32,000 nucleotides of DNA from Acaryochloris thomasi RCC1774. Its GTDB lineage: Bacteria; Cyanobacteriota; Cyanobacteriia; Thermosynechococcales; Thermosynechococcaceae. The notes below the pieces were generated by a model. The model saw nothing but the letters and a program-made list of their open reading frames with translations. It was not told where the DNA came from and ran no database searches. Of the stretch, positions 1 to 19,064 are shown in pieces. The stretch covers positions 60,001 to 92,000 of the forward strand of contig NZ_PQWO01000004.1 of assembly GCF_003231495.1 (NCBI RefSeq), written 5' to 3'. The position numbers and the translations under genes were made by a program. Positions within the stretch are counted from its first letter, which is position 1. Every line of letters starts with the position of its first letter.

Positions 1-18
1 TCAAACTTAGTAAACATC

Positions 19-645
19 CTAAGCCGCCTTCACTGTGGCAACACCCATCATCGCCTCTGGCGTTAGCAAGCCTGTCAACTGCTCTTCACTCATGCCTTCG
101 GTCCCGGCTGGACGCATGGGGAGAACCCACCAACGAATCTGAGCGCTGCTGTCCCAGACCTTGACCTGAACTGAATCATCAAGCTGGACGCCAAATTCAG
201 ATAAGACCACGCGGGGTTCTCGCACCACCCGCGCTCGAAACGTCGGATCTTTAAACCAGTAGGGCGGCAGTCCCAGCGTTGGCCAGGGATAGCAGGAGCA
301 GAGGGTGCAGACAATCACGTTGTGGACTTCGGGGGTATTTTCGACAATCCGCATGTGTTCGCCTTCCGCACCTGACATCCCCTCGGGGAAGTCCATTCTT
401 TCACAGGCGGCATTGCAGTCCTGGAGCAAGAGTTCTTTGAACTCTGGATCGACCCAGGCTTTAGCGACGATTTTGGCTCCGTTGAATGGTCCCATCTCGG
501 TTTCAAAGTAGCCGAGAATATTATTGACGGTTTCGCCGGTAATGATGCCTTTTTCAATCAGCAGAGATTCGAGGGCTTTCACTTTGGCGGCGCTAACAGT
601 TTCACGGTCAGCCCCATGCTTGAATTCTGGATAGTTGCTGGGCAT
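19..645 (-). CDS. nthA: nitrile hydratase alpha subunit, cobalt-type
   Basis: 208-aa ORF with the metal-claw motif VCTLCSCYPW (CTLCSC with Thr is the Co-type; the Fe-type has CSLCSC). AAGGAG Shine-Dalgarno lies 6 nt before the ATG at 645, directly after the nthB stop. Confidence 0.9.
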   Translation of the reverse strand: MPSNYPEFKHGADRETVSAAKVKALESLLIEKGIITGETVNNILGYFETEMGPFNGAKIVAKAWVDPEFKELLLQDCNAACERMDFPEGMSGAEGEHMRIVENTPEVHNVIVCTLCSCYPWPTLGLPPYWFKDPTFRARVVREPRVVLSEFGVQLDDSVQVKVWDSSAQIRWWVLPMRPAGTEGMSEEQLTGLLTPEAMMGVATVKAA

Positions 646-656
646 GTGATTCTCCT

Positions 657-1403
657 TTAAGCGGCTTCGACGTAGGCTTCAAAGATGTCGTTGTAGTAAA
701 CGACATTGGGTTCAGTCACGGACTCGTCCCACAAGTCTTCGGCATGGAAGACCAGACTATAGACCGGCATGGGAGTACCAATCCCGTCTGCGGTTGGGAA
801 AAAGTAGGTAAAGGCACCTTCGTAAACTTTGACCACTTCGGCAGTGTGACCTTTGAGATTCCCTGGCAGGCGACTGTGTTCACCGGGAGCAACGTTTTTG
901 ATCCGCACTTTGTCGCCGACGCTGAATTTTGGGGGAGCGGGTTGCGATCGCATCGGTGAATCGCCTTCGCGCAGGTACTTCTCAACTTGGGTATCAATCG
1001 CGGCATCGCCGCCGCTGGGTAAAGGGGCTTCTGCTTTAGCACTGTCTGCTAGAATTTCAGCCGTGCGGGCATCGAGTTCTTCTTGAGTGATGTAGCCCTC
1101 TTCCACAAAAAAGCCAGAAATGCCGCCCAGCCACTTTTCGTAGTAGCGCAGCCGAAAATATTCAAAGGGATGTATTCCCTCAGCTCCCATACGCAGATGG
1201 CCCCAGGTCCAAAAACTCTTGAACTGGGTCGGGACTTGATCAATTTTGTAGTCGGGGCGTGAGGAGTTTAGATGGTTACTGAGGGCCATCATGGCGGTGT
1301 GAATGCCAAAGATGCGCTTCTCCCAGGGTTCAACGAAGACCTCTAGTTCGGGGGTGATCGGGTCTAGCCCTTCTAGTCCGCCGAGATTGTGCTGTAGTTT
1401 CAT
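657..1403 (-). CDS. nthB: nitrile hydratase beta subunit
   Basis: 248-aa ORF. The N-terminus MKLQHNLGGLEGLDPI matches the beta-subunit pattern (xxHDLGG). It sits immediately upstream of the alpha subunit, the beta-alpha order typical of Co-type enzymes. Confidence 0.85.
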   Translation of the reverse strand: MKLQHNLGGLEGLDPITPELEVFVEPWEKRIFGIHTAMMALSNHLNSSRPDYKIDQVPTQFKSFWTWGHLRMGAEGIHPFEYFRLRYYEKWLGGISGFFVEEGYITQEELDARTAEILADSAKAEAPLPSGGDAAIDTQVEKYLREGDSPMRSQPAPPKFSVGDKVRIKNVAPGEHSRLPGNLKGHTAEVVKVYEGAFTYFFPTADGIGTPMPVYSLVFHAEDLWDESVTEPNVVYYNDIFEAYVEAA

Positions 1404-1469
1404 GGTTCTGCCTTGTTCTCAGTCAAAGAGTGTATGGATTCATGTGGAAATGGCGAGATGTTTTGCACT

Positions 1470-1500
1470 GGCCCCCCTAGCCCCCCAACCCTGGGGGGAA
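1470..1500. repeat. G/C-tract hairpin repeat, copy A (inverted orientation)
   Basis: GGCCCCCCTAGCCCCCCAACCCTGGGGGGAA. CCCCCC(1481-1486)/GGGGGG(1493-1498) form a 6-bp stem around a 6-nt loop. Related to copies B, C and D. Confidence 0.8.
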
Positions 1501-1675
1501 TGAATATTGAATTTGGATCTGCGTTTTACAGGGCTAGCCTTTGTGGACTTCGGGGGTGTTTGTATCTGTCGTGATCTCTCAGCCTTCATTGCGTTTGAGG
1601 AGATGAAGTTTCTACTGATTGTGAGCAAAGAGCTTAGAGACAGGATTTTATGGATGACCCTAAACGTGCGCTGCT

Positions 1676-1706
1676 CTCCCCCCAGAATTGGGGGGCCGGG
1701 GGGGCC
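1676..1706. repeat. G/C-tract hairpin repeat, copy B
   Basis: CTCCCCCCAGAATTGGGGGGCCGGGGGGGCC, near-identical to copy D. Stem CCCCCC(1678-1683)/GGGGGG(1690-1695), loop AGAATT. Confidence 0.85.
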
Positions 1707-1785
1707 AATGCAGGGTTGCACAAATTCCATCAATAGCTGCATGTACACGGTAGGAAAAAGAATCAGTTGTGTGTCTCTTCAATGC

Positions 1786-2766
1786 TCAGACGTGGGCATA
1801 AGTCTGAGCAAAGCAGTCTTGAAAACTTGCCCGGAGTTCTGCTTCATCTAAATTCCTGCCAATAAAAACCAGCTCGTTTTTACGAGTTTCTCCCGATCTC
1901 CAGGGCTGACCGGGCCTGCCATCTAAGGTCATGTGGACGCCCTGAAAGACAAATCGCCGCTCGGCATTATCGATGTCGAGAATGCCTTTCATTCGGAAAA
2001 TGTCTTGCCCCTTGGCCTGGATAAGCTGATTAAGCCAGCGGTTGAGTTTGTCGCTGTCTACGGTCCCGATCTCTGTGATCGCAACGGAATAGACCGATTC
2101 ATCGTGTTCGTGGGCCTCTTCGTCTAGAAACTCTGGGTCAATACTAAGGGCGTTCTTGAGATCAAAGGCTTGCACGCCCAGAATGCTATCTAAAGGAATA
2201 TCGCAGTTTTGGGTGCGCTGAAGGGTTGCGATCGCATTCATCCCCCTAACCTTCGACTCTAATTCTCCCAGTGCCTCAGCGGAAACCAGATCCGTCTTAT
2301 TGAGCAAAATCACATCGGCAAACGCGATCTGCTCCTGGGCTTCACTGCTATCCCAATGTTTGCCAATATGCTTAGCGTCGACGACCGTGACCACGGCATC
2401 TAGCTGTGTTTTCCGCAGCATCACTTCATCCACAAAGAAGGACTGAATCACGGGAGCGGGATCGGCCAGTCCCGTTGTTTCAATCACGAAGTGATCAAAG
2501 CGATCGCATCTCGTCATCAGGTCACTAATCAGGCGAATTAGATCGCCGCGAACGGTGCAGCAAATGCAGCCGTTGTTCATCTCTAAAATTTCTTCGTCAG
2601 CATTGAGGACCAGTTGATGATCAATCCCCACCTCGCCAAACTCATTGACAATCACGGCAATCTTCTTATCGTGCTCTTCGGTCAGAATCCGATTGAGCAG
2701 CGTGGTTTTGCCTGCGCCTAGATAGCCGGTGAGAATGGTGACCGGAATCTTTTGAATCATGACCAT
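1786..2766 (-). CDS. COG0523 (CobW/HypB/UreG-type) GTPase metallochaperone, paralog 1
   Basis: Walker [16 protein letters not shown], CxCC metal motif [10 protein letters not shown], acidic/His patch [10 protein letters not shown], CobW_C-like C-terminus. Sits between the Ni/Co permease and the nitrile hydratase genes. Confidence 0.85.
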
Positions 2767-2827
2767 CGGTTAAATCTCTCACTTTCTCTAAGGTGTCGGT
2801 CCATCGGCTGTTGGGATGTCTTTAGGG

Positions 2828-3328
2828 CTACGTGGGTTGGCGAGAGGTGGTCATCGCTTTGCCCCACGCCTCTGATAGGTAGCCAAAAATAGCGCCAAGA
2901 ATCATCGCTGCGATCGCAATTATCACGGGGTTATTCGGGGGGGCTGCCGTCACAGCCAACCCGGTCACGGCGACAGTCCCCACCGTCTGGGAAAAGCCCC
3001 ACACAATTGCAGGTGTAATGCCGTGGGTAAAAGGTAGCTTGGAAGCCTGCACCATCGCTGCGCTACCGATGCCCACACAAATGGCGGCAATCAGGGGACT
3101 TTCTCCGATCAGGTCAATCGCCAAGAGAGACAGGGCCGCAATGATAATGCCGGTGATATTGCAGGCAATCGATTTAATAAACCCCTGGACACCGCCGCCC
3201 ACAATGAAGAATGAGGCCCAGGCCGTAAACGTGACCCACACGGGCACAGGGATCACGGTGGCTGTAAGAAAGACATCAACGCCGCCAAGGACACCAATGC
3301 TGATCGTTAAGGCTTCTGACTGTTGCAT
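2828..3328 (-). CDS. small polytopic membrane protein, DUF1097-like
   Basis: I start it at MQQSEAL (ATG 3326-3328), which has a GAGGA SD 7 nt upstream. The longer track ORF (to 3490) would overlap hupE. About 5 hydrophobic helices. The family call is from memory of the YcdZ-like pattern and is uncertain. Confidence 0.5.
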   Translation of the reverse strand: MQQSEALTISIGVLGGVDVFLTATVIPVPVWVTFTAWASFFIVGGGVQGFIKSIACNITGIIIAALSLLAIDLIGESPLIAAICVGIGSAAMVQASKLPFTHGITPAIVWGFSQTVGTVAVTGLAVTAAPPNNPVIIAIAAMILGAIFGYLSEAWGKAMTTSRQPT

Positions 3329-3371
3329 AGGGGGTTCCTCTCTTGATGGGTGTTCTCCGATATCGGTACCG

Positions 3372-4055
3372 CTATCCCAAAAGGGCAGACGAGAGGAACG
3401 TCGCCCCGACACCACAAATGGCAAAACCGGCAAACCGCAGCGGCAGTTCGGGCATTTGATGACGTTTAAGAATTGCCCGACCGACGGCACTCATGCCCAG
3501 TGAGATCACCAGTTGAATCACGGTAAATCCCGTCAGATAAGCCACCATTGGCATCATGTCAGCGCCCACAATCGCTTCCCCGTAGGCATAGCCGTGGAAG
3601 ATACCTGCGATCGCACCTAACCCAGCCACTAGCTTCCAGTTTGGGCTCTTTCTCAGGGCCAACAGCACGCCAAACAGCAGGACTGATGCTGAAATAAAGA
3701 ACTCAGGAGCGGGTAAGTCCAGACTTTGCAAATGAATCCCTGTCCCCGCTAGACCTGCAATCACAAAAGCAACGGGAATCATAATCCCTTGGCGACTCAG
3801 GGCCGCTAATAGACCGGCTGCGATCACAAACACAAAGTGGTCCAAACCAATCACTGGGTGAGCAACACCCGACATAAAGCCCTCGAAGAAATTAGACGGC
3901 AGCTGTCCACCGAGGGGATGGTGGGCTAAGGCCGCAGGAGCCAGCGTCAACAGTCCTAGTCCAGCAAGTGCGATCGCACCTAGGGGACGAACCCATGGGG
4001 AAAATCTAGACCTCGTCTGATTGAAAACGATGAATGGCAAATTCAGCATCAGCAT
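3372..4055 (-). CDS. hupE: HupE/UreJ-family Ni/Co permease
   Basis: Signal peptide ending ALAHHPLGG, the signature HPVIGLDHFVFVIAAG, and multiple TM helices. This family is implicated in Ni or Co uptake. Confidence 0.8.
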   Translation of the reverse strand: MLMLNLPFIVFNQTRSRFSPWVRPLGAIALAGLGLLTLAPAALAHHPLGGQLPSNFFEGFMSGVAHPVIGLDHFVFVIAAGLLAALSRQGIMIPVAFVIAGLAGTGIHLQSLDLPAPEFFISASVLLFGVLLALRKSPNWKLVAGLGAIAGIFHGYAYGEAIVGADMMPMVAYLTGFTVIQLVISLGMSAVGRAILKRHQMPELPLRFAGFAICGVGATFLSSALLG

Positions 4056-4116
4056 TTCCTAGCGTAATCGGGATATTGACTTGGGAGTATTGAATAGATT
4101 GTCGTTTTGAAATCTT

Positions 4117-4148
4117 GGCCCCCCGCCCCCTCAATTCTGGGGGGAGAG
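4117..4148. repeat. G/C-tract hairpin repeat, copy C (inverted orientation)
   Basis: GGCCCCCCGCCCCCTCAATTCTGGGGGGAGAG. Its reverse complement, CTCTCCCCCCAGAATTGAGGGGGCGGGGGGCC, matches copies B and D. Confidence 0.85.
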
Positions 4149-4364
4149 AATATATACATTTTGCGGCTCAAGTAGAATGCTGCATTTGGGACCTTTGCTT
4201 AGAACGTTTGCAGACTCACCGCCCGCTCTCCTGAAGGCACCGAACGACTTTCCCAGCTTGCAGCGTAGAGCGTTAATTCAGAGAACCAATGCAGAACTGA
4301 ATCCTACACAAGCGGTTTAGATGAACGAGAGAATCCACGAATAATTTGCTCTAAGATGTTGCGA

Positions 4365-4395
4365 CCCTCCCCCCAGAATTGGGGGGCCGGGGGGG
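4365..4395. repeat. G/C-tract hairpin repeat, copy D
   Basis: CCCTCCCCCCAGAATTGGGGGGCCGGGGGGG. Stem 4369-4374/4381-4386. Confidence 0.85.
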
Positions 4396-4455
4396 AATGC
4401 AGAGCCGCCATGTATTTTATACAGCGAACCTATACATAGATTCTCAAACAGCGAT

Positions 4456-4899
4456 CTACCACTTTTTATAGGGCAAAAACTTGCCGCACATGGTGACTTG
4501 GACGCGATCTCCCTTTGGATCAGACACCTTATCAACCTCAATCGAAAAATCAATCGCGCTCATAATTCCGTCGCCAAACTTCTCGTGGATCACGGCTTTT
4601 ACAGGAACGCCATAGACCTGCATAATTTCGTAGAACCGATACACTAACGGATCGGTGGGAATTAAAGGATCAAGCCCACCCTTCATCGGGGGAACCGTCA
4701 GCGGTTCTGCCATCTCAGGTGGTAAACCCAACGTTTCCACAATCTTGCCCGCTTCTTCTTCAGAGGCACTGGCCTGACGATAGATCACTGAAGCAATCCA
4801 GGTTTCATCGCAGCCGACGACCTTCTCTAGGTCTTCAAAAGAAATACCCTTTGCTTTCTTCGCCGCTAAGAGCTTTTCAGTAATTTCGGCAGTCGTCAT
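4456..4899 (-). CDS. cynS: cyanase (cyanate hydratase)
   Basis: 147-aa ORF with full-length resemblance to CynS: N-terminal helix-turn-helix-like part, and C-terminal MSAIDF...[23 protein letters not shown] overlap with cynD. Confidence 0.92.
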
Positions 4900-5819
4900 A
4901 GTAAATCGTCCTTTGACGTATCAGTATTTGAGGAACGGTCTTTAGCCTGAATGCGAGACTGCTCGACATAGCGAGTCTCTCGATAGAGGTGGGCCTCCAT
5001 TTCGGTTCTCAGGCCATCGTAGGCAGGATGATGTTCGACCGAGTTGCGATCGCGCGGTCTCGGGAACGGCACATCCAAAATCTGGGCAATCTTAGCGGCA
5101 GGGCCACGGGTCATCATCACGATCTTGTCCGAGAGCAACAGTGCCTCATCAATACTGTGGGTAATCATGATCACCGTCTTGCGGTGCTGCTCCCAAATGC
5201 GCTCAATCTCTTCCTGCAGGTAGCCCCGCGTCAGGGCATCCAGTGCTCCAAAGGGTTCATCCATCAGCAACACCTTAGGGTTGATCGCTAGCGCCCGCGC
5301 AATCCCGACCCGCTGCCGCATTCCACCCGACAGCTCATGGGGATATTTACGTTCGGCTCCTATCAGATCGACGAGTTCAATATTCTCGCTCACAATTTGC
5401 TTAATGCGGGCCTTTGACAGCTTCGGATAGACTGTTTCAACCGCAAACCCAATATTGCCAGCCACCGTCATCCAGGGCATCAGAGCATAGTTCTGGAAGA
5501 CCATTCCCCGATCTGGCCCTGGCCCTGTAACGGGCTGGTTATCCATTGTCACCGTGCCGGTCGTCGCCTCACTCAGCCCGCCGATGATGTTGAGCAGCGT
5601 CGATTTTCCGCAGCCTGAGGGGCCAATGATCGTGACAAAGGTATTGTGCTCAATATCGAGACTCACCTCATCAATCGCCACAAAGTCGGGCGAACTCTGC
5701 CGATTGAACATCCCCCGTTTGCCGGGAAAGACCTTGGAGACCTGACTGAGGCTCAACTGAATGCCTGTAGGGGCTTCCATCGCAGGCGCTTGGGGATCAG
5801 AAATAGTGTGCATGATCAT
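4896..5819 (-). CDS. cynD: cyanate/nitrate-type ABC transporter ATP-binding protein
   Basis: Walker [10 protein letters not shown], signature LSGGMRQRV, Walker B LLMDEPF. 4-nt overlaps with both cynB and cynS. Confidence 0.8.
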
Positions 5820-6661
5820 GACCGGCCAAAGGAGACTAGTTTTTCAAGATAGGCAAAGATTTGGTCCAGAATCAGCCCCACCATGCCGATGATGAAAATA
5901 GCGACCAAAATGTTAGGGATGTACAGGTTATTCCACTCATTCCAGATGAAGTAGCCCAGGCCGGTGCCCAGCAGCATTTCTGCCGCCACAATCACCAGCC
6001 AAGCAATCCCCATACTGATGCGTAGCCCAGAGATAATATTGGGCAGTGCGGCTGGAATAATCACCTTGAAAATTGTGCGGAGTCGGGATGCCCCTAAGGT
6101 TTTAGAAACGTTGAGATAGTCATCGCTGACGTTAGCAACCCCAAAAGCGGTATTAACAAGTGTGGGCCAGATGCTGCTAATCATAATGATGAACACCCCC
6201 GTCTTCTCTGAATCACGGAAGATATAGAGACCGAGGGGCAGCCAAGCCAGAGGAGAGATGGGCTTCAAGAGCTGAACGTAGGGATTGAAGGCTTTGAAGG
6301 CAACTTTAGACATGCCAATCAGAATGCCTAGAGGAACCGCAACCAACGAGGCGGCGATATAACCGATCGCAACTCGCCTTAAGCTAATCAGCAAATTCCA
6401 GCCAATTCCCAAGTCGTTGGGACCGTTATCGAAGAAGGGATTGGTCGTCCACCACCACAGTTCCTCAATCGTTTTAGAGGCAGTGGGCATCCCCTTTGCA
6501 AACCATTTGGCATTTGCTCCCACCTCCCAGAACAGCAGGAACAGTCCCAGCGATAACAGAAAGACGAGCGCCGCCTTTATATTCTCATTGAGCTGAAAAG
6601 AAGATTTAGAAGAAGATGAGCTAGAAAGACTTGAGCTTGCGGCCATAGAGAACCTCGGCAA
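5816..6661 (-). CDS. cynB: cyanate/nitrate-type ABC transporter permease
   Basis: Polytopic NrtB/CmpB-like permease in the cynA-B-D-S order. The start may be the second Met (6646). Confidence 0.8.
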   Translation of the reverse strand: MPRFSMAASSSLSSSSSSKSSFQLNENIKAALVFLLSLGLFLLFWEVGANAKWFAKGMPTASKTIEELWWWTTNPFFDNGPNDLGIGWNLLISLRRVAIGYIAASLVAVPLGILIGMSKVAFKAFNPYVQLLKPISPLAWLPLGLYIFRDSEKTGVFIIMISSIWPTLVNTAFGVANVSDDYLNVSKTLGASRLRTIFKVIIPAALPNIISGLRISMGIAWLVIVAAEMLLGTGLGYFIWNEWNNLYIPNILVAIFIIGMVGLILDQIFAYLEKLVSFGRS

Positions 6662-6699
6662 CTATGTACAATGTGGTGCTTGCTTATACGCCGTATTTT

Positions 6700-8337
6700 C
6701 TATACACCATACTTATCGATCTGATCCTGGATGTACTGGCTTGGGTCGGCTGGATCAAAATCATCAAAGGCCAGTTTTTCTGTCTTATAGATTTCCTCCG
6801 GCGGCGATTGACCTAGCTCGGTCGCGAGTTCGCGGGCAAGGTCCGTCAGGAAAATATCTTGACCCACCTCGTCATATTTACCTTCTATCGCTGTCTTCGC
6901 CTTGCCGTCTCCCTGCAGATCCCAGCGGACAAGCTGCGATGAGATCCAGTTGGCGAAACTCTGCCAGGGATAGGGATCAAACCCAATCCGGTCCGGAACT
7001 TCCAGCCTATTGCCGTTGCCGTCATCAAAATTGCCCGTCAGCACCGCCTCGACCACTTCAGTTGGCTGGTTGAGGAAAGCCCGCTCCGAGATCGCTTTGG
7101 CAATCTCGGGGCGGTTTGCGGGATCGCTCGCATATCCGGCAGCTTCGATGATCGACTTATTTAAGGCTCGGAAGGTGTTGGGGTTCGCATCAATCCACTG
7201 ATCACTGGCAGCAAAGGCGCAGCAAGGGTGATTGGGCCACAAATCCTTCGTTAGCTTGTGAATGAAACCCACTTCCTCGAAGACTGCCCGTTGATTAAAT
7301 GGATCAGGCATCAGATAGGCATCAATATCTCCCGACACTATCTGGGCAATGCTATCCGGCGGCGGTACTGGACGAATTTTGACGTCTACGTCGGGATCAA
7401 GACCACCCGTCGCTAGGTAGTATCTCAGCAGCAGATTGTGCATCGAATAGGGGAACGGAACCCCCATCACAAACCCCTTGAAGTCAGCAGGGCCGTTGAC
7501 TTTACCCTTGTGGCGGTTGGCGACAGTGATTGCCTGACCGTTGATGTTCTCAATACTGGCAAGCTTTACCCCAAAGGAGGCCGATCCTAAGCCCAAGGTC
7601 ATGGCAATCGGCATGGGGGCGAGCATGTGGTAAGCGTCAAGTTCACCTGCGATCGCAGAGTCTCTGACCGCACCCCAACTGGGCATCTTCACCACTTCGG
7701 CATTGAGGCCATACTTCTTATAGAATCCCAGCGGCTCCGACATAATAATCGGTGTCGCGCAGGTAATCGGGATAAACCCAATCTTCAAATCTGTCTTCTC
7801 TAGATTCTCTGGAACGTCTGCCGAATCACCTGGGGCCGTGGGCGCATCGGAACCGCCAGGAGTACAGCTAGCCAGTGAGACCAAAGCTGCCCCCACAGCA
7901 ACATTCCTGAGAAACTCTCGCCGAGTCACGCTACTAATGCGTTGAGCATCGCTGAAGAACCGACCCGCTTGCGGTCCAAACGCAGCCGCAAAAGCCTGAT
8001 CTAAGCCACCGGCAAGCTTAATCAGATCATTAACAAGGCGCTCTCGCTTTGGGTCGCCCTTAGAAACCGTTTTTAGAAAAAGCTGCTTTCTCAACTCCGT
8101 TTGACTGAGCGTGTCAGCAAGGTCAAAACTATCGGGTTTGTATAGCCCCATCTTGATCAGGTCGTCCACCATATCGACCGGATCACTGGGCAGCGTCTCC
8201 ATGTACTGCCAATGATCTCGACTCATGTGAGAACCGCCGCAGATTGCACAGAGCAATTCCAGTTCACTGAGATTACCGCGCTGGGAAGTTAGGTTATCCC
8301 ACTGCTGCGAGGGACCGTTAAATGAAGCTACCGCCAT
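6700..8337 (-). CDS. cynA: NrtA/CmpA/CynA-type substrate-binding lipoprotein with an unusual 136-aa N-terminal extension
   Basis: The periplasmic-binding domain starts after an internal twin-arginine motif plus lipobox (V137-TRREFLRNVAVGAALVSLASC). The frame stays open 136 codons upstream to the ATG at 8337. An alternative GTG start lies at 7927-7929. Confidence 0.75.
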   Translation of the reverse strand: MAVASFNGPSQQWDNLTSQRGNLSELELLCAICGGSHMSRDHWQYMETLPSDPVDMVDDLIKMGLYKPDSFDLADTLSQTELRKQLFLKTVSKGDPKRERLVNDLIKLAGGLDQAFAAAFGPQAGRFFSDAQRISSVTRREFLRNVAVGAALVSLASCTPGGSDAPTAPGDSADVPENLEKTDLKIGFIPITCATPIIMSEPLGFYKKYGLNAEVVKMPSWGAVRDSAIAGELDAYHMLAPMPIAMTLGLGSASFGVKLASIENINGQAITVANRHKGKVNGPADFKGFVMGVPFPYSMHNLLLRYYLATGGLDPDVDVKIRPVPPPDSIAQIVSGDIDAYLMPDPFNQRAVFEEVGFIHKLTKDLWPNHPCCAFAASDQWIDANPNTFRALNKSIIEAAGYASDPANRPEIAKAISERAFLNQPTEVVEAVLTGNFDDGNGNRLEVPDRIGFDPYPWQSFANWISSQLVRWDLQGDGKAKTAIEGKYDEVGQDIFLTDLARELATELGQSPPEEIYKTEKLAFDDFDPADPSQYIQDQIDKYGV

Positions 8338-8368
8338 AACTGTTACGGATATTCCTATATTTGAATTA

Positions 8369-8410
8369 ATTAGACCTTAAGATTCAGGATCGTTTTGTAT
8401 TATTTGATAC
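8369..8410 (-). promoter_or_regulatory. candidate NtcA-activated promoter of the cyn operon
   Basis: GTATTATTTGATAC (8397-8410) is a GTA-N8-TAC site. On the minus strand it is followed by 22 nt and then TCTAAT (8374-8369), about 30 nt before the ATG at 8337. Confidence 0.45.
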
Positions 8411-9000
8411 GGGCCTGACGCATATCAAAAATCAGAAGAGAGCAGAAAGATATACGGGCAAAAACTAGAAAGCCCCAAATATTTTCCTTTGGAAGAATTT
8501 CTTTTTGTAACTCAGCGTGCATAGATTGCTAAGGGTCTTGCATAAAAGTGCTAAGCCTGCGTTATGCTTCGTGACAGACAGTTACAGCCCCTCGCTTCAG
8601 GTAACTTAAAGCTAACCATACAAGGAAATATTGAACTGCAGTCATGTTGATGTACTTCAGCCCAAATATCTATTCAAATAGTATTTAAAAGACAGCTTTC
8701 TTTCAGAAGGTCTAATTCTCTTGAAAGCTAAAACATTCTTTCAGGTAAAGCTAAAATTCTGAAGAAAACTACTCACTGCTTTTGCTACTTGCTAACGATT
8801 TTGTAGAGAGAAGCAATTTTTCTACTCTGCTTCTGAATAAAGGCTACCAGCTACTCTACTCCCAGGACATTGGACGATCTATGGCAGGCATAGGATTTTC
8901 TTTTGATCTGTCTGGGAATACTCATAAAGGTATTGCCGTCTAAATCTGGATCAACACTCATTCAGGGTTCGGTTCAGGCAGCAGGCTCTACTCACTTTGG

Positions 9001-9759
9001 TCATTCATGCTGACAGCTATCGATCTCTTGCCGCCAAGCCTGAGGAGAGACGCCATGGATCTGACGAAATTGACGATTGAAGTAGCCTGCATCGGTATAG
9101 CCTGTATCTGCCGCCACCTTTTTGATCGGTTCTTTTGTCTTGGACAGCAGTTCGCGGGCTTGGGTCATGCGGCGTTCAATAATCCATTGCTTAACGGAGC
9201 GGCCCGTCTGACTATTGACGAGGCTCGTGAGATAGGCCGGAGAGTAGCCCACCACATCCGCGATATCTCGGAGCTGAATGGGCTGTTGGTAATGTGCTTC
9301 TATGAATTGGAACACAGAGCTGAGTTGCGGACAGTCTGGGAAAATGCTGGTTGGTGGTTCAGTCTCGTCTGATGGCGGATGTAGATCGGAGTGGCGCTGA
9401 AGGCGGGTTGCGATCGCATCAATAAACACCCCCACCGTACAGGGCTTCGTCAAATAATCATCGGCTCCCAAATTCATTCCCACCCGCAGATCGGGCATTG
9501 TCGCCTTCGCCGTCAAAAAAATAAAAGGAATGCTCGCCGTATCAGACCCCTGACGCAGCGTTGAAAGCACCTGATAGCCATCCATATCTGGCATCATAAT
9601 GTCGCACACCACTAAATCGGGATGGTGTGTTTGCGCCAACTCAACCCCTTCGGACCCACAGCTTGCCCCCACAGCACCAAAGCCCTCAAAGGATAAACTG
9701 CTCAGAAACACGCTGCGGGTTTGGGCTTCATCCTCAATAATGAGAACTGTTTGGGACAT
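9001..9759 (-). CDS. response regulator, receiver domain plus AraC-type HTH output
   Basis: REC motifs (LIIEDE, DLVVCDIMMPDMDG, LTAK). The C-terminal AraC signature is GYSPAYLTSLV...GYTDAGYFNRQFRQIHGVSP. Confidence 0.85.
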   Translation of the reverse strand: MSQTVLIIEDEAQTRSVFLSSLSFEGFGAVGASCGSEGVELAQTHHPDLVVCDIMMPDMDGYQVLSTLRQGSDTASIPFIFLTAKATMPDLRVGMNLGADDYLTKPCTVGVFIDAIATRLQRHSDLHPPSDETEPPTSIFPDCPQLSSVFQFIEAHYQQPIQLRDIADVVGYSPAYLTSLVNSQTGRSVKQWIIERRMTQARELLSKTKEPIKKVAADTGYTDAGYFNRQFRQIHGVSPQAWRQEIDSCQHE

Positions 9760-9863
9760 TGCTCAAGCTTTGATAGAACTGATGGCCGGACTGTGCGAGC
9801 TTTGCGATTTTTCCGAAGGCTATAACCGTCAGTTAACCGTTTTATGAGGGGCGCTTTGGTGTA

Positions 9864-11072
9864 ATGGATAACAGTTTGACGACGGGTCAACCCACGGCAA
9901 AAGTGCTAGAAACGCTGCGGCGACAGAATGAGCTGATTCTCAATTCTGTGGGTGAGGGTATCTATGGCCTAGATCTCGACGGAAATGCTACCTTCGTCAA
10001 TCCCGCTGCTGCTGAGATGATTGGTACAGCCGTGAGCGATTTGATTGGCAAGTCCATGCACCAGGTGTTGCATCACTCCCATGCTGACGGACGCCACTAT
10101 CCTCGTGAGACTTGCCCGATCTATGCCGCATTCAAGGATGGCGCAGTTCACCGCGTCACTGATGAAGTGTTTTGGCGTCAGGATGGAACGGCTTTCCCAG
10201 TGGAATATCTGAGTACGCCCATGCGTGATGAACAAGGGCAGCTTGTGGGAGCTGTTGTCACGTTTCGGGATATCTCGAAACGCAAGTGGGCTGAGGCAAT
10301 TCTGCAGCAAACCAATGAGGCGCTAGAGCTGAAGGTGCAGGAGCGGACAGCGGAGTTGATACAGGCTAATCAGCAGCTTCAGGAGTTGAGTGAGTTGCGA
10401 TCGCGTTTTGTCTCGATGGTCTGTCACGAGTTCCGCAACCCGCTTAATAACATTGCCCTCTCTGTTTCATCAATGGAGCGCTATGAGCAGCAGCTCTCTG
10501 AAGATCAGAAGCGAGAGTATCTGCAGGCGATTGTCGCCAATACAGATCGGATGACGGCGATGATTGACGACATCTTGGTGATTGGGAAAATTGAAGCGGA
10601 CCAGTTAGCGATTAGACCCGCCACCCTTGATATTGTTCAGTTTTGTCAGGCGTTGCTCAAAGAGCTGCAGTTGACTGCACCTAAGCATGAGTTGGTATGG
10701 GTTTGCGATCGCACCCATTTAGAGATGGGGGTCGATGAACAACTGTTGCGATCGGTCTTAGTCAATATTTTGCACAATGCGATTCGCTACTCGCCGCAGG
10801 GGGGACAGATTGAACTGAAGCTGGTTCAAGAGCCACAGGCAATCACGTTTCACATCACCGATCACGGACTCGGCATTCCCGACGCGGATCAGTCTCTTCT
10901 CTTTGAACCCTTCCATCGCGGTAAAAACGTCAGCAACATTCCTGGCACAGGACTAGGGTTGAGTATCGTAAAGCAATTTGTTGTGCTATTGAACGGCACT
11001 GTTGCCTTTGAAAGCACCTTAGGAGTGGGAACAAGCTTTATCATTCGCTTGCCAGCCATTGCTGTACGTTGA
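9864..11072 (+). CDS. PAS-domain sensor histidine kinase
   Basis: PAS region, coiled-coil, H-box CHEFRNPLN, and an HATPase with N, G1 and G2 boxes (ILHNAIRYS, DHGLGIP, GTGLGLSIV). Divergent from the regulator. Confidence 0.85.
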   Translation: MDNSLTTGQPTAKVLETLRRQNELILNSVGEGIYGLDLDGNATFVNPAAAEMIGTAVSDLIGKSMHQVLHHSHADGRHYPRETCPIYAAFKDGAVHRVTDEVFWRQDGTAFPVEYLSTPMRDEQGQLVGAVVTFRDISKRKWAEAILQQTNEALELKVQERTAELIQANQQLQELSELRSRFVSMVCHEFRNPLNNIALSVSSMERYEQQLSEDQKREYLQAIVANTDRMTAMIDDILVIGKIEADQLAIRPATLDIVQFCQALLKELQLTAPKHELVWVCDRTHLEMGVDEQLLRSVLVNILHNAIRYSPQGGQIELKLVQEPQAITFHITDHGLGIPDADQSLLFEPFHRGKNVSNIPGTGLGLSIVKQFVVLLNGTVAFESTLGVGTSFIIRLPAIAVR

Positions 11073-11249: not shown

Positions 11250-11822
11250 ATGACCTTTGTCGCTCCTCAACACCTGACGCTAGATGACTTTCTTGGGCTT
11301 CCAGACCTGGAACAGTCTCCGACATGGGAATATGTTGCAGGGGAGGCAATTCAGAAACCGATGCCCAAGGTTCGACATTCGCTGCTGCAAAAGCGACTGC
11401 TGACTAAGTTAGATAGCGCAGGAGAGAACTATCTGGCTCTGCCTGAGCTACGTTGCACATTTGGAGATCGCTCCGTTGTCCCGGATATTGTCGTAGTATC
11501 TTTAGACCAATTTGACCTCAATGATTTGGGTGAACCGGAAGATAACTTTACTCAGGCTCCAGATTGGGCCATAGAGGTGCTTTCACCGGATCAAAATGCG
11601 AATCGGGTGATCGATAATCTGCTGTATTGCCTCCGTCATGGTGGTCAGCTTGGTTGGTTGATTGATCCCGATGATTATTCTGTGTTGGTATTAACACCTG
11701 GTCAGGAGTTAGAAATTTATCGGGGTACTCAGCAGATTCCGGTGCTCGGTGGCGTGACGTTGCAGCTTACAGCAGAGGAAATATTTGGCTGGCTGAAACT
11801 CAAACACATCAGCTCAGGTTAA
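11250..11822 (+). CDS. Uma2 (DUF820) family endonuclease-like protein
   Basis: Typical Uma2 pattern: LTLDDFLGLPD...WEYVAGEAIQKPMP...PDIVVV...APDWAIEVLSP. Confidence 0.8.
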   Translation: MTFVAPQHLTLDDFLGLPDLEQSPTWEYVAGEAIQKPMPKVRHSLLQKRLLTKLDSAGENYLALPELRCTFGDRSVVPDIVVVSLDQFDLNDLGEPEDNFTQAPDWAIEVLSPDQNANRVIDNLLYCLRHGGQLGWLIDPDDYSVLVLTPGQELEIYRGTQQIPVLGGVTLQLTAEEIFGWLKLKHISSG

Positions 11823-14743: not shown

Positions 14744-15520
14744 TTAGCCCATTTTCAACCAACTAAAGATTGAGCTAGCCGTAAGAGTCAGTTCTAGACT
14801 CGGAAGAACGGGAATAACTCGATCACCACGACATAATGCTGGCTGTTGCTGAGGCTGTAAACCTACATTCCGCAGGTAGTACACTTTTCTAGAAGCAATA
14901 TTAGAGAAGGGTTACAGGGCCTGTCAAAAATCGGCTCTGTTCTATCAATCCAGGTTGCATCACCTGAAAAAACAGATCACAGACTCTCTAGAAGCCAGAT
15001 TCGGAAAAGCAATACAGGTTAATCGGCCACCTGTCTCTCAACGCTCTGAGGGAGGTATTCTTGAATTTCGGGCTAAGGCTCAAAGCCTTTACTGGGAAAG
15101 GCTTACAAGAATTCACTAACCTGCGGAATGTAGGTGTAAAAACAAAATATTGAGATCATCTGAATCGATAAACCAACCAACGCGACTACTATTCTCCAGG
15201 CAATAAAGAATATTGTCTAACACTTGATTGGGTCGCTGTTCAAGGGACAGAATTTCAATGATCCAATCTGGCGATCGATTAAAGTTATCGGGAACATTAC
15301 CGTCTGAAGTGAATGATATATGCTCCCACTGAAAACTGACATATCCGGGAAAACCGATCTCGCTCCAAAACCGCATCTCAATTCTGGAAAAGCATAAGCA
15401 ACTTTCGTATTTTACAGAGACTTGATTGATAATCGCGCAGAGTTTTCTCTTTACCCAACATACTGGACGCTTTAACTTTATGCTCATGCCCCTGATGGTT
15501 GATCCGTTAGACTTATCCAA
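14744..15520 (-). pseudogene. Uma2-family gene, 5'-truncated and split by a MITE insertion
   Basis: The upstream part reads ...PDWIIEILS...VGWFIDSDDLNILF. It is interrupted, then resumes at 14860 as LQPQQQPALCRGDRVIPVLPSLELTLTASSIFSWLKMG*. The joined text is colinear, residue for residue, with the intact Uma2 at 11250-11822. Confidence 0.65.
14861..15136. mobile_element. 276-bp MITE (family B) with 17-bp perfect terminal inverted repeats
   Basis: ACCTACATTCCGCAGGT (14861-14877) versus ACCTGCGGAATGTAGGT (15119-15135). Flanked by TAA direct repeats (14858-14860 and 15137-15139). No ORF inside. Confidence 0.7.
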
Positions 15521-16466: not shown

Positions 16467-17522
16467 TTATCCAAAACCTTTTGATGGTGTGTCCATACAC
16501 CAAATCATCAACTGTCCATCCATTCCGCCACCCACTAAATAATGCCCCAAAGGATGCCACGCAAGACAGGCCACTCCGGCACTCAACCCCTTAAGCGTTT
16601 GATTCACCTTCTTAGCCCCCTTCCAAAGTAAAACCCGCTGATCCTCTCCCCCAGACGCTAAAAGCTGAGTCTGTGGCTGAAATGCGATCGCATTCACAAA
16701 ACCCTGATGCTCCGTTAGCACATGACTATTCCAGTTGCCGCCCTCACGCCGCCAAACGGTAATCCCATCCACACAGGCCGCAGCTAACAGAGCCGCACCG
16801 TCAGCCCAAGTAATGTGACTCACTTTGCCCGGAAACCCCTGCATCAACCAAGGTGGTGGCTTCTCCCACGCCAACACCGAAAGCGTGCGATCCAGATTGC
16901 CCGACGCTAAATACTGACCATCCGCTGACCATCGACAGGTTAGACTCGCCCCCGGTACCTCAAACAACAGCAGCGGCATCTCTGGTGTCTGTAGATCCCA
17001 AATCTTGACGCCACCGTGACCGCTCACAGCCAAATATTCCCCAGCCGGATGCCAAGCTAAATCCAATACCGACGAGGACTCAAACTCCAGCGTAGCCGTT
17101 TGCTTTTGGTGCTGCAGATCCCAGATTTGGACCTGGCGATGGGTTGCGATCGCAACCCTCTCCTCCACCGGATGCCAAGCTAAGTGATCAATCCAAACCG
17201 ACGGATAAACCTGCTCAAGTACAAGCTTCGGAACATCCTGCAAAACATCCCACACCCATACCTTGCCCGCCTGTCCCCCCACTGCAAGAAACTGGCTGTT
17301 CGCCGAGAACCCAAGGCAGTCACAGGAAAAGTCACCTGCCGTCAGCAAATCCAGCCTAACTCTCTGCGGACTTTCGGCCTCTTTCCACAGCACGGCTTCC
17401 CCTGCCGCTGAGATGGCTGCTAGATATTTGCCGTTGCTCGACCAGATAACCCCTCGCACATAATCAGATAACTGGTCTTGGGCTTGCTTTCTAAACGTGA
17501 TCAATGCACTCACACCAAACAA
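16467..17522 (-). CDS. WD40-repeat protein
   Basis: Repeated ...GH...V..LAW(H/S)P.G..LA.GG.D..V.(I/L)W blades. Its start overlaps the stop of the upstream COG0523 gene by 13 nt. Confidence 0.8.
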   Translation of the reverse strand: MFGVSALITFRKQAQDQLSDYVRGVIWSSNGKYLAAISAAGEAVLWKEAESPQRVRLDLLTAGDFSCDCLGFSANSQFLAVGGQAGKVWVWDVLQDVPKLVLEQVYPSVWIDHLAWHPVEERVAIATHRQVQIWDLQHQKQTATLEFESSSVLDLAWHPAGEYLAVSGHGGVKIWDLQTPEMPLLLFEVPGASLTCRWSADGQYLASGNLDRTLSVLAWEKPPPWLMQGFPGKVSHITWADGAALLAAACVDGITVWRREGGNWNSHVLTEHQGFVNAIAFQPQTQLLASGGEDQRVLLWKGAKKVNQTLKGLSAGVACLAWHPLGHYLVGGGMDGQLMIWCMDTPSKGFG

Positions 17523-18469
17523 GCTTTAAACGAATCCTGGAGGTTCATTTCATCCAAGTCTCGGCCAATAAACACCATCTCATTCTTGCGTGTTTCTGTT
17601 GGTTTCCAATTGCGATCGGGAGCACCATCAAAGATCATGTGGACGCCTTGAAATACAAACCGCTGCTCCTCGTTCTCCACGTTGAGAATCCCCTTCATCC
17701 GAAAGATATTGGGACCGTGGGTTTCTAACAGATTCGTCATCCAAGTATTGAGCTTATCTAGATTTACCGCCCCCGCTTCTACAATGGAGCGAGAATACAC
17801 AGAATCATCATGCTCATGAGCATCCTCGCCCAAAAACTCTGGGTCAATCTCTAGCGCCCGCTTCAGGTCAAAGGCCTTCACTCCTAAAACTGAATCCATG
17901 CCAATCTCGCAGTGCTGCGTATGGTGAATTTTGACCAGTGCATTCATGGCCCGCATTTTTTGTTCGAGTTCCTTCAGCTTATCTGGTTCAACCAGATCGG
18001 TCTTATTGAGTAAAATTACATCCGCGAAGGCGATTTGCTCCTGCACCTCTTCGCTATCCCAGTGCGCTTCAACATGCTGAGCATCTACCACCGTGACGAC
18101 TGCATCTAAATCAAGCTGGGCTTGAATCTCTTCATCCACAAAGAACGTCTGGATGACGGGAGCTGGATCGGCGAGTCCAGTGGTCTCAATCACGAGGTGG
18201 TCAAACTGATCGCGGCGGCGCATGAGGTTGCCGATAATCCGAATTAGGTCTCCTCGTACCGTGCAGCAGATACAGCCATTATTCATTTCAAAGATTTCTT
18301 CATCAGCATCGATCACAAGCTGATTATCAATGCCCACTTCACCAAACTCATTGACGATCACAGCTACTTTCTTGCCATGCTCGTGGGTCAGAATTCGATT
18401 GAGAAGCGTCGTCTTTCCGGCACCTAGATAGCCCGTCAGTACGGTAACGGGAACGGCTGAACTAACCAT
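17510..18469 (-). CDS. COG0523 GTPase metallochaperone, paralog 2
   Basis: Same motifs as 1786-2766 ([29 protein letters not shown]). By eye roughly two thirds or more of residues are identical to paralog 1. Confidence 0.85.
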   Translation of the reverse strand: MVSSAVPVTVLTGYLGAGKTTLLNRILTHEHGKKVAVIVNEFGEVGIDNQLVIDADEEIFEMNNGCICCTVRGDLIRIIGNLMRRRDQFDHLVIETTGLADPAPVIQTFFVDEEIQAQLDLDAVVTVVDAQHVEAHWDSEEVQEQIAFADVILLNKTDLVEPDKLKELEQKMRAMNALVKIHHTQHCEIGMDSVLGVKAFDLKRALEIDPEFLGEDAHEHDDSVYSRSIVEAGAVNLDKLNTWMTNLLETHGPNIFRMKGILNVENEEQRFVFQGVHMIFDGAPDRNWKPTETRKNEMVFIGRDLDEMNLQDSFKACLV

Positions 18470-18781: not shown

Positions 18782-19064
18782 CGGTTACCCCTCCATTCCT
18801 CTTCGGTAGAGCCAAATGAATTGAGTCGTAACGACTGCTGCTGAAGCTTAGTATTCATGGCTGGGGGATTGGTCTTTGTAGCAACTGATACGATTGAGGC
18901 CATCGCAGCCTATTCTGCCTAGCTTGGTGGAGAGAAGTTGCGATGCCTCAGGGCCTGCCTTCGGCAATCGCGCATCGTCACAACGGATCAGCTGGAGTGA
19001 ACATCCAGGACAATGATTCATGCCAGAAGTCTGTTGAACCTCCTACGCTAGACTAAGAGGAGTT

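Follow-up and report, generated by a model that had tools for sequence, protein, structure and literature searches.

A string of co-oriented genes in the cyanobacterium Acaryochloris thomasi RCC1774 joins a cyanate-assimilation operon, cynABDS, to genes for a nitrile hydratase (NHase) of cobalt (Co) type and for candidate helpers in supplying its metal. That string begins within, and runs past one edge of, the DNA considered here as ‘the window’, which is a stretch of 32,000 nucleotides from assembly GCF_003231495.1 (contig NZ_PQWO01000004.1, positions 60,001 to 92,000; below, C4:60001-92000). The source genome is 5.9 Mb in size and 99% complete, and its nearest public relatives are metagenome-assembled genomes (MAGs) labelled Thermosynechococcaceae cyanobacterium. 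Gene identities were taken from a mechanical list of open reading frames (ORFs) followed by Pfam and NCBIfam profile searches. What emerges is that one portion of the string, consisting of a COG0523 GTPase gene, nthB, nthA, and a small accessory gene, is an invariant, widespread, and mobile unit.

An initial annotation of the window had described nine genes on one strand, and these nine, with their coordinates, are upheld by the ORF list, with profile matches supporting every identity. Reading along the minus strand, the cyanate genes come first. These are cynA (6700..8337), encoding an NMT1_2-type substrate-binding lipoprotein (PF13379, 265 bits; Tat signal by TIGR01409), cynB (5816..6661), encoding an NrtB-type ABC permease (TIGR01183, 223 bits, cut-off 209), cynD (4896..5819), encoding an NrtC/D-type ABC ATPase (TIGR01184, 325 bits, cut-off 292), and cynS (4456..4899), encoding cyanase (TIGR00673, 201 bits, cut-off 113; NF002773, 213 bits). 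As had also been noted, the cynB/cynD (5816-5819) and cynD/cynS (4896-4899) junctions overlap by 4 nt each. After a gap of 400 nt (4056-4455) follow hupE (3372..4055), encoding a HupE/UreJ-family Ni/Co permease (PF04955, i.e., HupE_UreJ, 135 bits), a gene for a small membrane protein of 166 aa (DUF1097, PF06496, 101 bits; 2828..3328, the ORF itself extending to 3490), and the gene for a G3E GTPase of the COG0523 family (1786..2766; 326 aa; cobW 202 bits, CobW_C 89 bits). Past a second gap, of 382 nt (1404-1785) and like the first just as originally measured, lie nthB (657..1403), for the NHase beta subunit (TIGR03888, 206.5 bits, cut-off 152.2; NHase_beta_N and NHase_beta_C domains), and nthA (19..645), for the alpha subunit (TIGR01323, 296 bits, cut-off 249.85).

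The string does not end at nthA, as had been supposed. Inspection of the DNA past window base 1 (L009, equal to C4:48001-61000) adds two further minus-strand genes. One is an NHase accessory gene of NhlE/P14K type (120 aa), with its ATG at window bases 15-17, 1 nt past the nthA stop, and which thus occupies window bases 1..17 and continues onward to C4:59655; it corresponds to L009:11655-12017 and passes the TIGR03889 model (82.6 bits, cut-off 46). The other, starting 20 nt beyond the accessory gene, encodes a DUF1348 protein (C4:59137-59634, i.e., L009:11137-11634; PF07080, 217 bits) and is the last gene of what is consequently a string of eleven. Next comes a plus-strand toxin-antitoxin pair, and the shared orientation stops there. 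The nine-gene arrangement is a real gene cluster, far beyond what chance would give, and it is a cluster assembled from known parts.

The alpha subunit had been credited with a Co-type metal-binding claw, and indeed its claw reads VCTLCSCYPW (VIVCTLCSCYPW). By the published rule, CTLCSCY marks Co-type and CSLCSCT marks iron (Fe)-type NHases (PMC2770081), and the order beta-alpha-accessory is likewise typical of Co-type enzymes (PMC7193024). The best relatives of NthA in the Protein Data Bank (PDB) are all Co-type, at 220-294 bits, with Fe-type enzymes at about 180 bits. Assignment of the enzyme to the Co type is supported, that is, both by its motif and by those best PDB relatives. Nor is the motif peculiar to this genome, as the claw across the clade reads VCTLCSCY in 63 proteins, ICTLCSCY in 4, and VCSLCSCY in 1.

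The presence of the accessory gene changes how the GTPase is to be viewed. The initial annotation reported that neither an amidase nor a small activator was visible, and it had a COG0523 protein stand in for the activator, with a HupE-type permease in the place of the usual cobalt importer. The amidase portion of that statement holds, as there is none within the eleven-gene string. The activator portion was mistaken, since a TIGR03889 gene directly follows nthA. With the accessory gene also present, COG0523 is an addition to the Co-type activator rather than a substitute for it, whereas HupE remains plausible, by its sequence and context, as a dedicated cobalt importer.

How general this arrangement may be was addressed by scanning a single genome from each species, which returned 165 relatives, of which the best 80 loci were kept and compared with all of the cluster proteins by tblastn. 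Neighbouring genes were counted only over loci with sufficient flank, hence the differing denominators. COG0523 stands beside nthBA in 63 of 63 loci and the accessory gene is found in 77 of 77 related loci, while hupE is seen in 27 of 55, DUF1097 in 26 of 68 (78-93% identity), and DUF1348 in 2 of 55. In relatives, co-localisation with nthBA is invariant for COG0523, partial for hupE, and occasional for cynS, which is a neighbour in only 7 of the 80. Hosts include dozens of cyanobacterial genera, Granulosicoccus (L078-L080) and other Gammaproteobacteria, a Polyangiales MAG, and an Alphaproteobacterium. Closer to home, NthA is present in 8 of 40 relatives of the source genome at 87-94% identity, these representing three genera of the same family plus one other family.

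Plasmids carry the unit as well (gene orders here as annotated in RefSeq). On pAQ4 of Synechococcus sp. PCC 7002 the order is GTP-binding protein, DUF1097, nthB, nthA, accessory, HupE, adjoining an IS4 transposase. A plasmid of Gloeocapsa PCC 7428 has the same module architecture, flanked by two amidase genes. Rhizobium leguminosarum pRL1 shows GTPase, DUF1097, nthBA, accessory, CbtB, CbtA, and Azospirillum brasilense p3 shows GTPase, nthBA, accessory, and a permease of energy-coupling factor (ECF) type. The classical Co-type clusters seen on an Acinetobacter plasmid and on a Rhodococcus plasmid, by contrast, are without COG0523. Inspection of plasmid hits for Fe-type NHase clusters turned up Co-type or atypical ones only. 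In an NthA tree, a branch with SH-aLRT 99.7 separates the 84 proteins that COG0523-linked clusters encode from four classical Co-type enzymes together with seven divergent paralogues that represent second NHases. Correlations of pairwise distances are r = 0.90 for NthA-NthB, 0.87 for NthA-accessory, 0.63 for NthA-COG0523, 0.69 for NthB-COG0523, and 0.79 for COG0523-HupE, values which would fit co-inheritance plus some shuffling.

The fuller block, hupE-DUF1097-COG0523-nthBA-accessory, is found whole in marine Gammaproteobacteria (the Granulosicoccus loci L078-L080 and, from other Gammaproteobacteria, L093, L096, L097, and L101), with NthA 69-81% identical. In the COG0523 tree the gammaproteobacterial sequences sit among those of cyanobacteria, which indicates that the kit was passed on horizontally in one piece.

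The GTPase itself has its motifs intact, i.e., Walker A (GYLGAGKT), CxCC (GCICCT), ETTG, and NKTD, and its PDB match is YjiA (1NIJ). It falls under every NCBIfam equivalog cut-off, the best match being the YjiA-like PRK11537 (247 versus 361 bits), with 218.5 versus 332.1 bits for the CobW model TIGR02475, no His-rich insert, and 204 versus 600 bits for the ZigA model. Seven full-length COG0523 paralogues, along with shorter cobW-domain matches, are encoded by the source genome. Two of these are 70-71% identical to the NHase-linked protein, one of them WD40-linked and found within the same window (17510-18469), where its gene and the start of a WD40 gene (16467-17522) overlap. On a COG0523 tree the NHase-linked proteins fall in one group together with the two close paralogues, the backbone of that group being an unresolved polytomy that leaves room for the NHase-linked set to be monophyletic. 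That this GTPase might be a duplicate of CobW was considered and rejected, given its score below the CobW model cut-off and its identity of 34% to a riboswitch-linked paralogue described below.

In the classification of Haas et al. (PMC2770081), subgroup 5 is the one whose context is WD40/znuABC/HoxN; it has many cyanobacterial members and is zinc-associated. Nha3, the COG0523 protein of Fe-type NHases, belongs by that account to subgroup 2, which itself lies within subgroup 1. It clusters exclusively with Fe-type NHase, while no subgroup at all is linked to Co-type NHase. The partner of the present COG0523 carries CTLCSCY rather than the CSLCSCT which exclusivity of Nha3 would call for. As the context of the near paralogue is that of subgroup 5, and not of subgroups 1 or 2, the NHase-linked COG0523 can be read as having been recruited separately from Nha3, from which it is set apart here by way of the subgroup descriptions of Haas et al.

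Turning to the importer, HupE matches PF04955 and its first-helix HPxxGxDH signature reads HPVIGLDH, that signature being the rule for the HupE/UreJ family, a member of which supplies cobalt in Synechocystis (PMC7689651). Over the loci surveyed for importers, hupE is found in 33, CbiM (with CbiQ) in L064, L085, and L100, CbiQ in L058, and CbtA/B in L105 and in Rhizobium, with hupE occurring together with CbiM/Q or CbtA/B in 0 loci. PLSDB annotates the two proteins as CbtA and CbtB, to which cobalt specificity is ascribed on the basis of regulation by B12 riboswitches. An importer slot that is exchangeable and yet mutually exclusive (HupE, CbiM/Q, or CbtAB) points to cobalt, and from this context cobalt is likely to be the metal of the NHase kit.

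Exactly two HupE genes are found in the source genome, their proteins 62% identical. The other gene (C6:137914-138582) is preceded by a cobalamin riboswitch (RF00174, 58.9 bits). The arrangement there (C6:137600-139675, L106) is riboswitch, hupE, and then a CobW-like COG0523 gene with a His-rich insert. This is in contrast with the report by Haas et al. in 2009 that cyanobacterial cobW genes are not riboswitch-regulated (PMC2770081), as in the source genome a cobW-like gene follows a riboswitch-controlled hupE. The two pairs are alike in that the C6 pair (C6:137914-139675) consists of the same two families, importer plus GTPase, serving a cobalt-requiring product. They are unlike in that only the C6 pair is under a B12 riboswitch and only its COG0523 protein has the His-rich insert. 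Nor would the NHase-linked pair be a simple duplicate of the C6 pair, because the GTPases are only 34% identical.

The cyanate operon, ordered A-B-D-S, encodes a cyanase, NrtB- and NrtD-type ABC subunits, and an NMT1-type binding protein. CynABD is a putative cyanate (and nitrite) transporter by its synteny with cynS. The suggestion that this operon is apparently under NtcA control gains from the candidate NtcA-type promoter at 8369..8410 (minus strand), which consists of a perfect GTA-N8-TAC box (GTATCAAATAATAC, 8410-8397), a spacing of 22 nt, and TCTAAT (8374-8369), with the box 60-73 nt ahead of the cynA ATG. Perfect boxes number 3 over the 32-kb window, versus 2.5 expected, and with just 3 per window it is unlikely by chance that one should fall less than 100 nt from the cynA start. 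L027, the sister genome, keeps the box as well as the -10 region. In three loci at greater distance, L029, L084, and Pleurocapsa (L088), neither was found within 200 nt of cynA. In the window no perfect box precedes hupE, the COG0523 gene, or nthB. Among 73 NHase blocks of other loci, a perfect box lies up to 350 nt upstream in 12, with about 3 expected, several of those blocks being closely related. The module on the Gloeocapsa PCC 7428 plasmid has a perfect box at -178.

The cyn and NHase genes are found near each other repeatedly. In the 7 of 80 loci, about six lineages, in which they are neighbours, cynS lies no more than 8 kb from the NHase module, where less than one such locus would be expected by chance (16-kb span, 5-Mb genome). 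Three arrangements are seen: cynABDS-hupE-...-COG0523-nthBA-accessory, cynABDS-nthBA-accessory-COG0523-hupE (in Pleurocapsa, L088), and a convergent form (L084). The initial annotation spoke of a ‘supercluster’, and as one fixed unit this does not stand, with the NHase module found alone in most genomes and on plasmids.

Its proposal of a nitrogen-scavenging role fares better. In Arthrospira PCC 8005 the genes nthA, nthB, cynS, and fmdA rise upon nitrogen depletion, as mRNA and/or protein (PMC4509649), and the accessory gene of Arthrospira/Limnospira has been named nthE (PMC8400943). By analogy with that induction, a scavenging role for the present genes is supported. The same reports qualify the claim that no such unit had been described for cyanobacteria: a nitrogen-regulated nthBA-nthE already had been (PMC4509649, PMC8400943). 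The remainder of the claim stands insofar as searches of the literature turned up no account of COG0523 among the clustered genes of a Co-type NHase, of a link between COG0523 and HupE, or of cyn genes fused to those of an NHase.

The two large gaps are of a particular construction. Each holds an inverted pair of a palindromic repeat of about 40 nt, built of G/C runs and with the core CCCCCC-AATTCT-GGGGGG. In the cynS-hupE gap the pair spans 4119..4394 (arms 4119-4146 and 4367-4394, 93% complementary), and in the COG0523-nthB gap it spans 1464..1712 (arms 1464-1499 and 1677-1712, 86% complementary), occupying most of that gap. The arms have dozens of genomic copies, many of them in inverted pairs spaced by 150-300 nt and enclosing interiors that are unique. 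As only the arms of about 40 nt recur, a miniature inverted-repeat transposable element (MITE) with a conserved interior is unsupported, and the repeat behaves instead like one of repetitive extragenic palindrome (REP) type. Folded as RNA, each pair could yield a stem of about 30 bp, with z = -2.85 for the cynS-hupE gap and z = -4.54 for the COG0523-nthB gap. The cynS-hupE pair is present also in the sister genome L027 and is absent from Acaryochloris MAGs, while the COG0523-nthB gap in L027 is of 37 nt only. Simple scans of both gaps found no minus-strand sigma-70-like promoter and no intrinsic terminator. A riboswitch or small RNA within the gaps was considered and set aside, as Rfam at permissive thresholds returned nothing in 1-10000 and the dispersed repeat pairs account for the gaps. 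That same dispersed repeat also yields spurious ORFs, reading ‘...PPILGG...’.

Taken together, the reading to which we incline, as being more likely than not, is that the region consists of two modules, cynABDS plus a mobile Co-type NHase kit, which would jointly scavenge nitrogen from small C-N compounds. From behind its NtcA-type promoter, cynABDS would take up cyanate and cleave it to CO2 and NH3. HupE, or in other hosts CbiM/Q or CbtAB, would import Co2+. The COG0523 GTPase, in its GTP state, would capture Co(II) on the CxCC site and would then pass that metal to an apo-alpha subunit as held by the NhlE-type accessory protein. The latter would next swap the metallated, cysteine-oxidised alpha subunit into NthAB, and the resulting holo-enzyme would hydrate a nitrile to an amide, with NH3 then freed from that amide by amidases or formamidases that the genome encodes at other sites. 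DUF1097 and DUF1348 would be optional add-ons. Lying after cynS, the kit is likely to be co-expressed with the nitrogen-starvation regulon or expressed in parallel to it. In this reading we infer the use of cobalt in vivo, the involvement of a chaperone, the order in which the metal is handed over, co-transcription, and the nature of the substrate.

A number of findings weigh against that reading. Most NHase modules are not beside cyn genes, and the majority are without a perfect NtcA box. The 382- and 400-nt gaps, with their hairpin-forming repeat pairs, part the cyn, hupE-COG0523, and nthBA blocks from one another, and these gaps could hold promoters or processing sites. The string is without an amidase. 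The nearest candidate for an amide hydrolase is an FmdA_AmdA-like gene, 5.4 kb off and on the opposite strand, and fmdA-like genes flank the NHase module in only 2 of 80 loci; elsewhere in the source genome there are a true formamidase and three amidase-signature genes. Reviews hold that Co-type NHase matures without a COG0523 metallochaperone (PMC9164220; PMC11672702), and the classical plasmid clusters inspected do indeed lack one. Lastly, the GTPase is only 34% identical to the CobW-like paralogue and 70-71% identical to paralogues that include one in the zinc-associated context of subgroup 5, and with these paralogues within an unresolved polytomy a preference for cobalt is not readable from sequence.

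Several of these points could be combined into the view that the modules are mere neighbours, a mobile NHase cassette having come to lie beside cynABDS with promoters of its own inside the 400- and 382-nt gaps. This we judge unlikely on balance, if still deserving of some weight. The module does stand alone in most of the 80 loci, it is plasmid-borne and beside an IS4 transposase in PCC 7002, its content differs even within a genus (an FGE-like gene in L027 versus DUF1097 in the source genome), and the gaps are large, with REP-like hairpin pairs. Mere adjacency nevertheless sits poorly with a cyn-NHase junction that is found in about six lineages and three arrangements, where less than one is expected by chance, and the scans of the gaps on the coding strand found nothing promoter-like or terminator-like. 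Nor would separate transcription entail separate regulation: nthAB of Arthrospira is nitrogen-regulated though not beside cyn, such that shared regulation is possible without a shared transcript.

Two further alternatives concern the metal. It is improbable, in our estimation, that the COG0523 protein is a zinc-type, i.e., subgroup-5-like, chaperone that has no part in NHase loading and that either serves another client or buffers zinc against mis-metallation of the Cys3 claw. Its 70-71% identity to non-NHase paralogues, one of them in the WD40 context of subgroup 5, speaks for this idea, as does its YjiA-like best NCBIfam match, since YjiA and YeiR are reported to prefer Zn(II) (PMC7895991). 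Such a protein need not, however, be linked to the NHase in 63 of 63 loci, with genes tightly spaced or overlapping in other genomes, nor be co-inherited with the module across phyla; and guarding against mis-metallation would itself be a function in NHase maturation. A metal other than cobalt we consider very improbable, whether HupE brings nickel for other enzymes or COG0523 loads iron in the manner of Nha3 despite the Co-type motif. HupE/UreJ was first tied to nickel enzymes (PMC7689651), the source genome has a UreG-like gene, and the COG0523 activators known so far are those of Fe-type NHase only (PMC2770081, PMC11672702). Against this, the CTLCSCY motif and the NhlE-type accessory gene are both present, the importer slot is held by CbtAB or CbiM in other hosts, and the HupE paralogue of the source genome lies behind a cobalamin riboswitch.

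Linkage to COG0523 in 63 of 63 loci is at odds with ‘Co-type NHase needs no COG0523’ as a general rule. A bolder proposal, which we put forward tentatively and hold to be somewhat more doubtful than not, is that the whole of this Co-type NHase clade, i.e., in cyanobacteria, rhizobia, Azospirillum, and marine Gammaproteobacteria, needs a COG0523 protein in addition to an NhlE-type swap chaperone, with the GTPase having been recruited, independently of Nha3, from the WD40/zinc-associated subgroup 5 lineage that includes eukaryotic ZNG1. Were this true, a bacterial COG0523 protein would for the first time be matched to a client that is a defined non-corrin cobalt enzyme, and the notion that Co-type NHases do without a GTPase would be restricted to the actinobacterial and pseudomonad model enzymes.

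Comparison with known systems indicates what is shared and what is not. The nhlBAE genes of Rhodococcus rhodochrous J1, with the NiCoT permease NhlF, and the Pseudomonas putida NRRL-18668 system, with P14K, are alike to the present cluster in their beta-alpha-accessory order, in CTLCSCY, in having a small, beta-like, self-subunit-swapping accessory protein (TIGR03889), and in having nearby a dedicated importer, here a putative one for cobalt. The source cluster differs from these in that an invariant COG0523 gene precedes nthB, a HupE importer (or else CbiM/Q or CbtAB) takes the place of a NiCoT permease, DUF1097, DUF1348, and Tat-FGE-like genes are optional, no amidase is in the source string, and NthA falls in a separate clade. 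With the Fe-type NHases that employ Nha3, P44K, or P47K (Rhodococcus sp. N-771, P. chlororaphis B23), what is shared is an operon-encoded CxCC COG0523 GTPase that presumably acts upon the alpha subunit. Here, however, the enzyme has the Co-type motif and keeps an NhlE-type accessory protein, and the GTPase is of 326 aa rather than 44-47 kDa, is encoded upstream of beta-alpha, and resembles paralogues that are WD40-linked, i.e., of subgroup 5 context, rather than subgroup 1/2, where Nha3 is compared via its description by Haas et al.

The cynABDS operons of Synechococcus elongatus PCC 7942 and of marine Synechococcus resemble the present one in A-B-D-S order, overlapping junctions, NrtB/NrtD-type subunits, cyanase, and an upstream NtcA box. 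Unlike those operons, the source operon is followed by seven more same-strand genes, the NHase kit, its CynA has a conserved extension of 136 residues ahead of the Tat signal, and upstream it has, as a conserved neighbour, a gene for a REC-AraC regulator. The nthB-nthA-nthE genes of Arthrospira/Limnospira PCC 8005 are alike in being a cyanobacterial Co-type NHase plus accessory, induced upon nitrogen depletion with cynS and fmdA, although the papers name no COG0523 or HupE gene (PMC4509649, PMC8400943) and the cluster there is not beside cyn. The PCC 7002 pAQ4 genes (RS14360-RS14335) are alike in gene set, with NthA 88% identical, but are plasmid-borne by an IS4 element, are without cyn genes, and have HupE downstream. 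No functional study of the pAQ4 NHase genes RS14360-RS14335 was found in the literature. What survives of the contrast drawn initially can be put more sharply: there is a widespread Co-type NHase clade which always has COG0523, along with an exchangeable and probably cobalt-specific importer, and which in a minority of cyanobacteria is joined to cyn.

This matters since bacterial COG0523 proteins are abundant while hardly any has been assigned a client; reviews list only CobW and Nha3 among bacterial members with a known client (PMC11672702). The COG0523-linked Co-type NHase clade is an obvious candidate client, and it is one that is found in genetically tractable hosts, i.e., PCC 7002 (pAQ4) and Rhizobium leguminosarum. 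The module is thereby a system with which to ask how a G3E GTPase picks both its metal and its target, and also why a Cys3 cobalt site would need GTP-driven loading where cobalt is scarce. Where enzymes of this clade are to be expressed heterologously, the COG0523 gene may, in addition, be a helper that has been missing. The recurrent joining of the kit to cyn suggests, for its part, that some cyanobacteria scavenge nitrogen from nitriles besides from cyanate, a scavenging that would be cobalt-dependent and outside of the standard pictures of cyanobacterial nitrogen assimilation.

Among genes that seem optional to the kit is that for DUF1097, which bears out the small polytopic membrane protein of the initial annotation. 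Its start (MQQSEALT, at 3328) is set by 23 orthologues, and its identity is 87-93% among cyanobacterial genera that have the order DUF1097-COG0523 or COG0523-DUF1097. Six helices are predicted, and the AF2 model has a pLDDT of 84.9. Foldseek found no PDB structure similar to that model at E <= 0.001, and a role as an AmiS/UreI-like amide channel was considered and finds no support in that search. In 39 of 80 loci a gene with a Tat signal and an FGE-sulfatase domain (PF03781) is directly upstream of the NHase-linked COG0523 gene (e.g., L030:7070-8032). In the sister genome L027 the FGE-like gene (L027:6666-7583) is in the slot in which the source genome has DUF1097, so that module content differs within one genus. 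The FGE-like protein is an exported enzyme of cysteine-modifying type adjoining an NHase whose own cysteines are oxidised.

In many related loci (L032, L036, L039, L046, L065, L075, and others) a further Co-type NHase, which is divergent, is encoded upstream of nthA at a distance of about 3-9 kb, with its NthA about 53% identical and with an accessory gene of its own. Accompanying it are a NitT/TauT-type ABC transporter, an isochorismatase-family hydrolase, and an Lrp/AsnC regulator, and the set may be another system of nitrile or amide uptake and hydrolysis. This second NHase is absent from the source window.

Downstream of the string (C4:53249-58427; L009:5249-10427) are genes for the FmdA_AmdA-like amidohydrolase, a SepF-domain fusion, an acyl-CoA-dehydrogenase (ACAD)-like flavoenzyme, OsmC, and a TetR/AcuR-like regulator. 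In L029 an ACAD-like gene and a second CynA paralogue likewise are found near the NHase module.

CynA itself has its Tat signal (residues 137-165) and its lipobox behind a conserved N-terminal extension of 136 residues (window 7927-8337). A long cytoplasmic domain ahead of a Tat signal is unusual. Full-length CynA orthologues, of 75-93% identity, are found in L027, L029, L084, and L088, and a second, orphan CynA paralogue of the source genome (C4:46052-47626), 12 kb away, has the same extension and is 60% identical over 535 aa. Upstream of cynA there is a REC-AraC response regulator gene (9001..9759, minus strand; Response_reg plus HTH_18) and, divergent from it, a gene for a PAS histidine kinase (9864-11072, plus strand). 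Homologues of the regulator, at 53-60% identity, are beside cynA in L029, L084, and L088, and the cyn operon may have in it a regulator of its own.

Farther into the window are three Uma2-family genes (PF05685, putative restriction endonuclease) within 9 kb, at 11250-11822, 15116-15520, and 19065-19868. Between the window's second COG0523 gene and one of these Uma2-family genes there is a perfect GTA-N8-TAC box (18878-18891).

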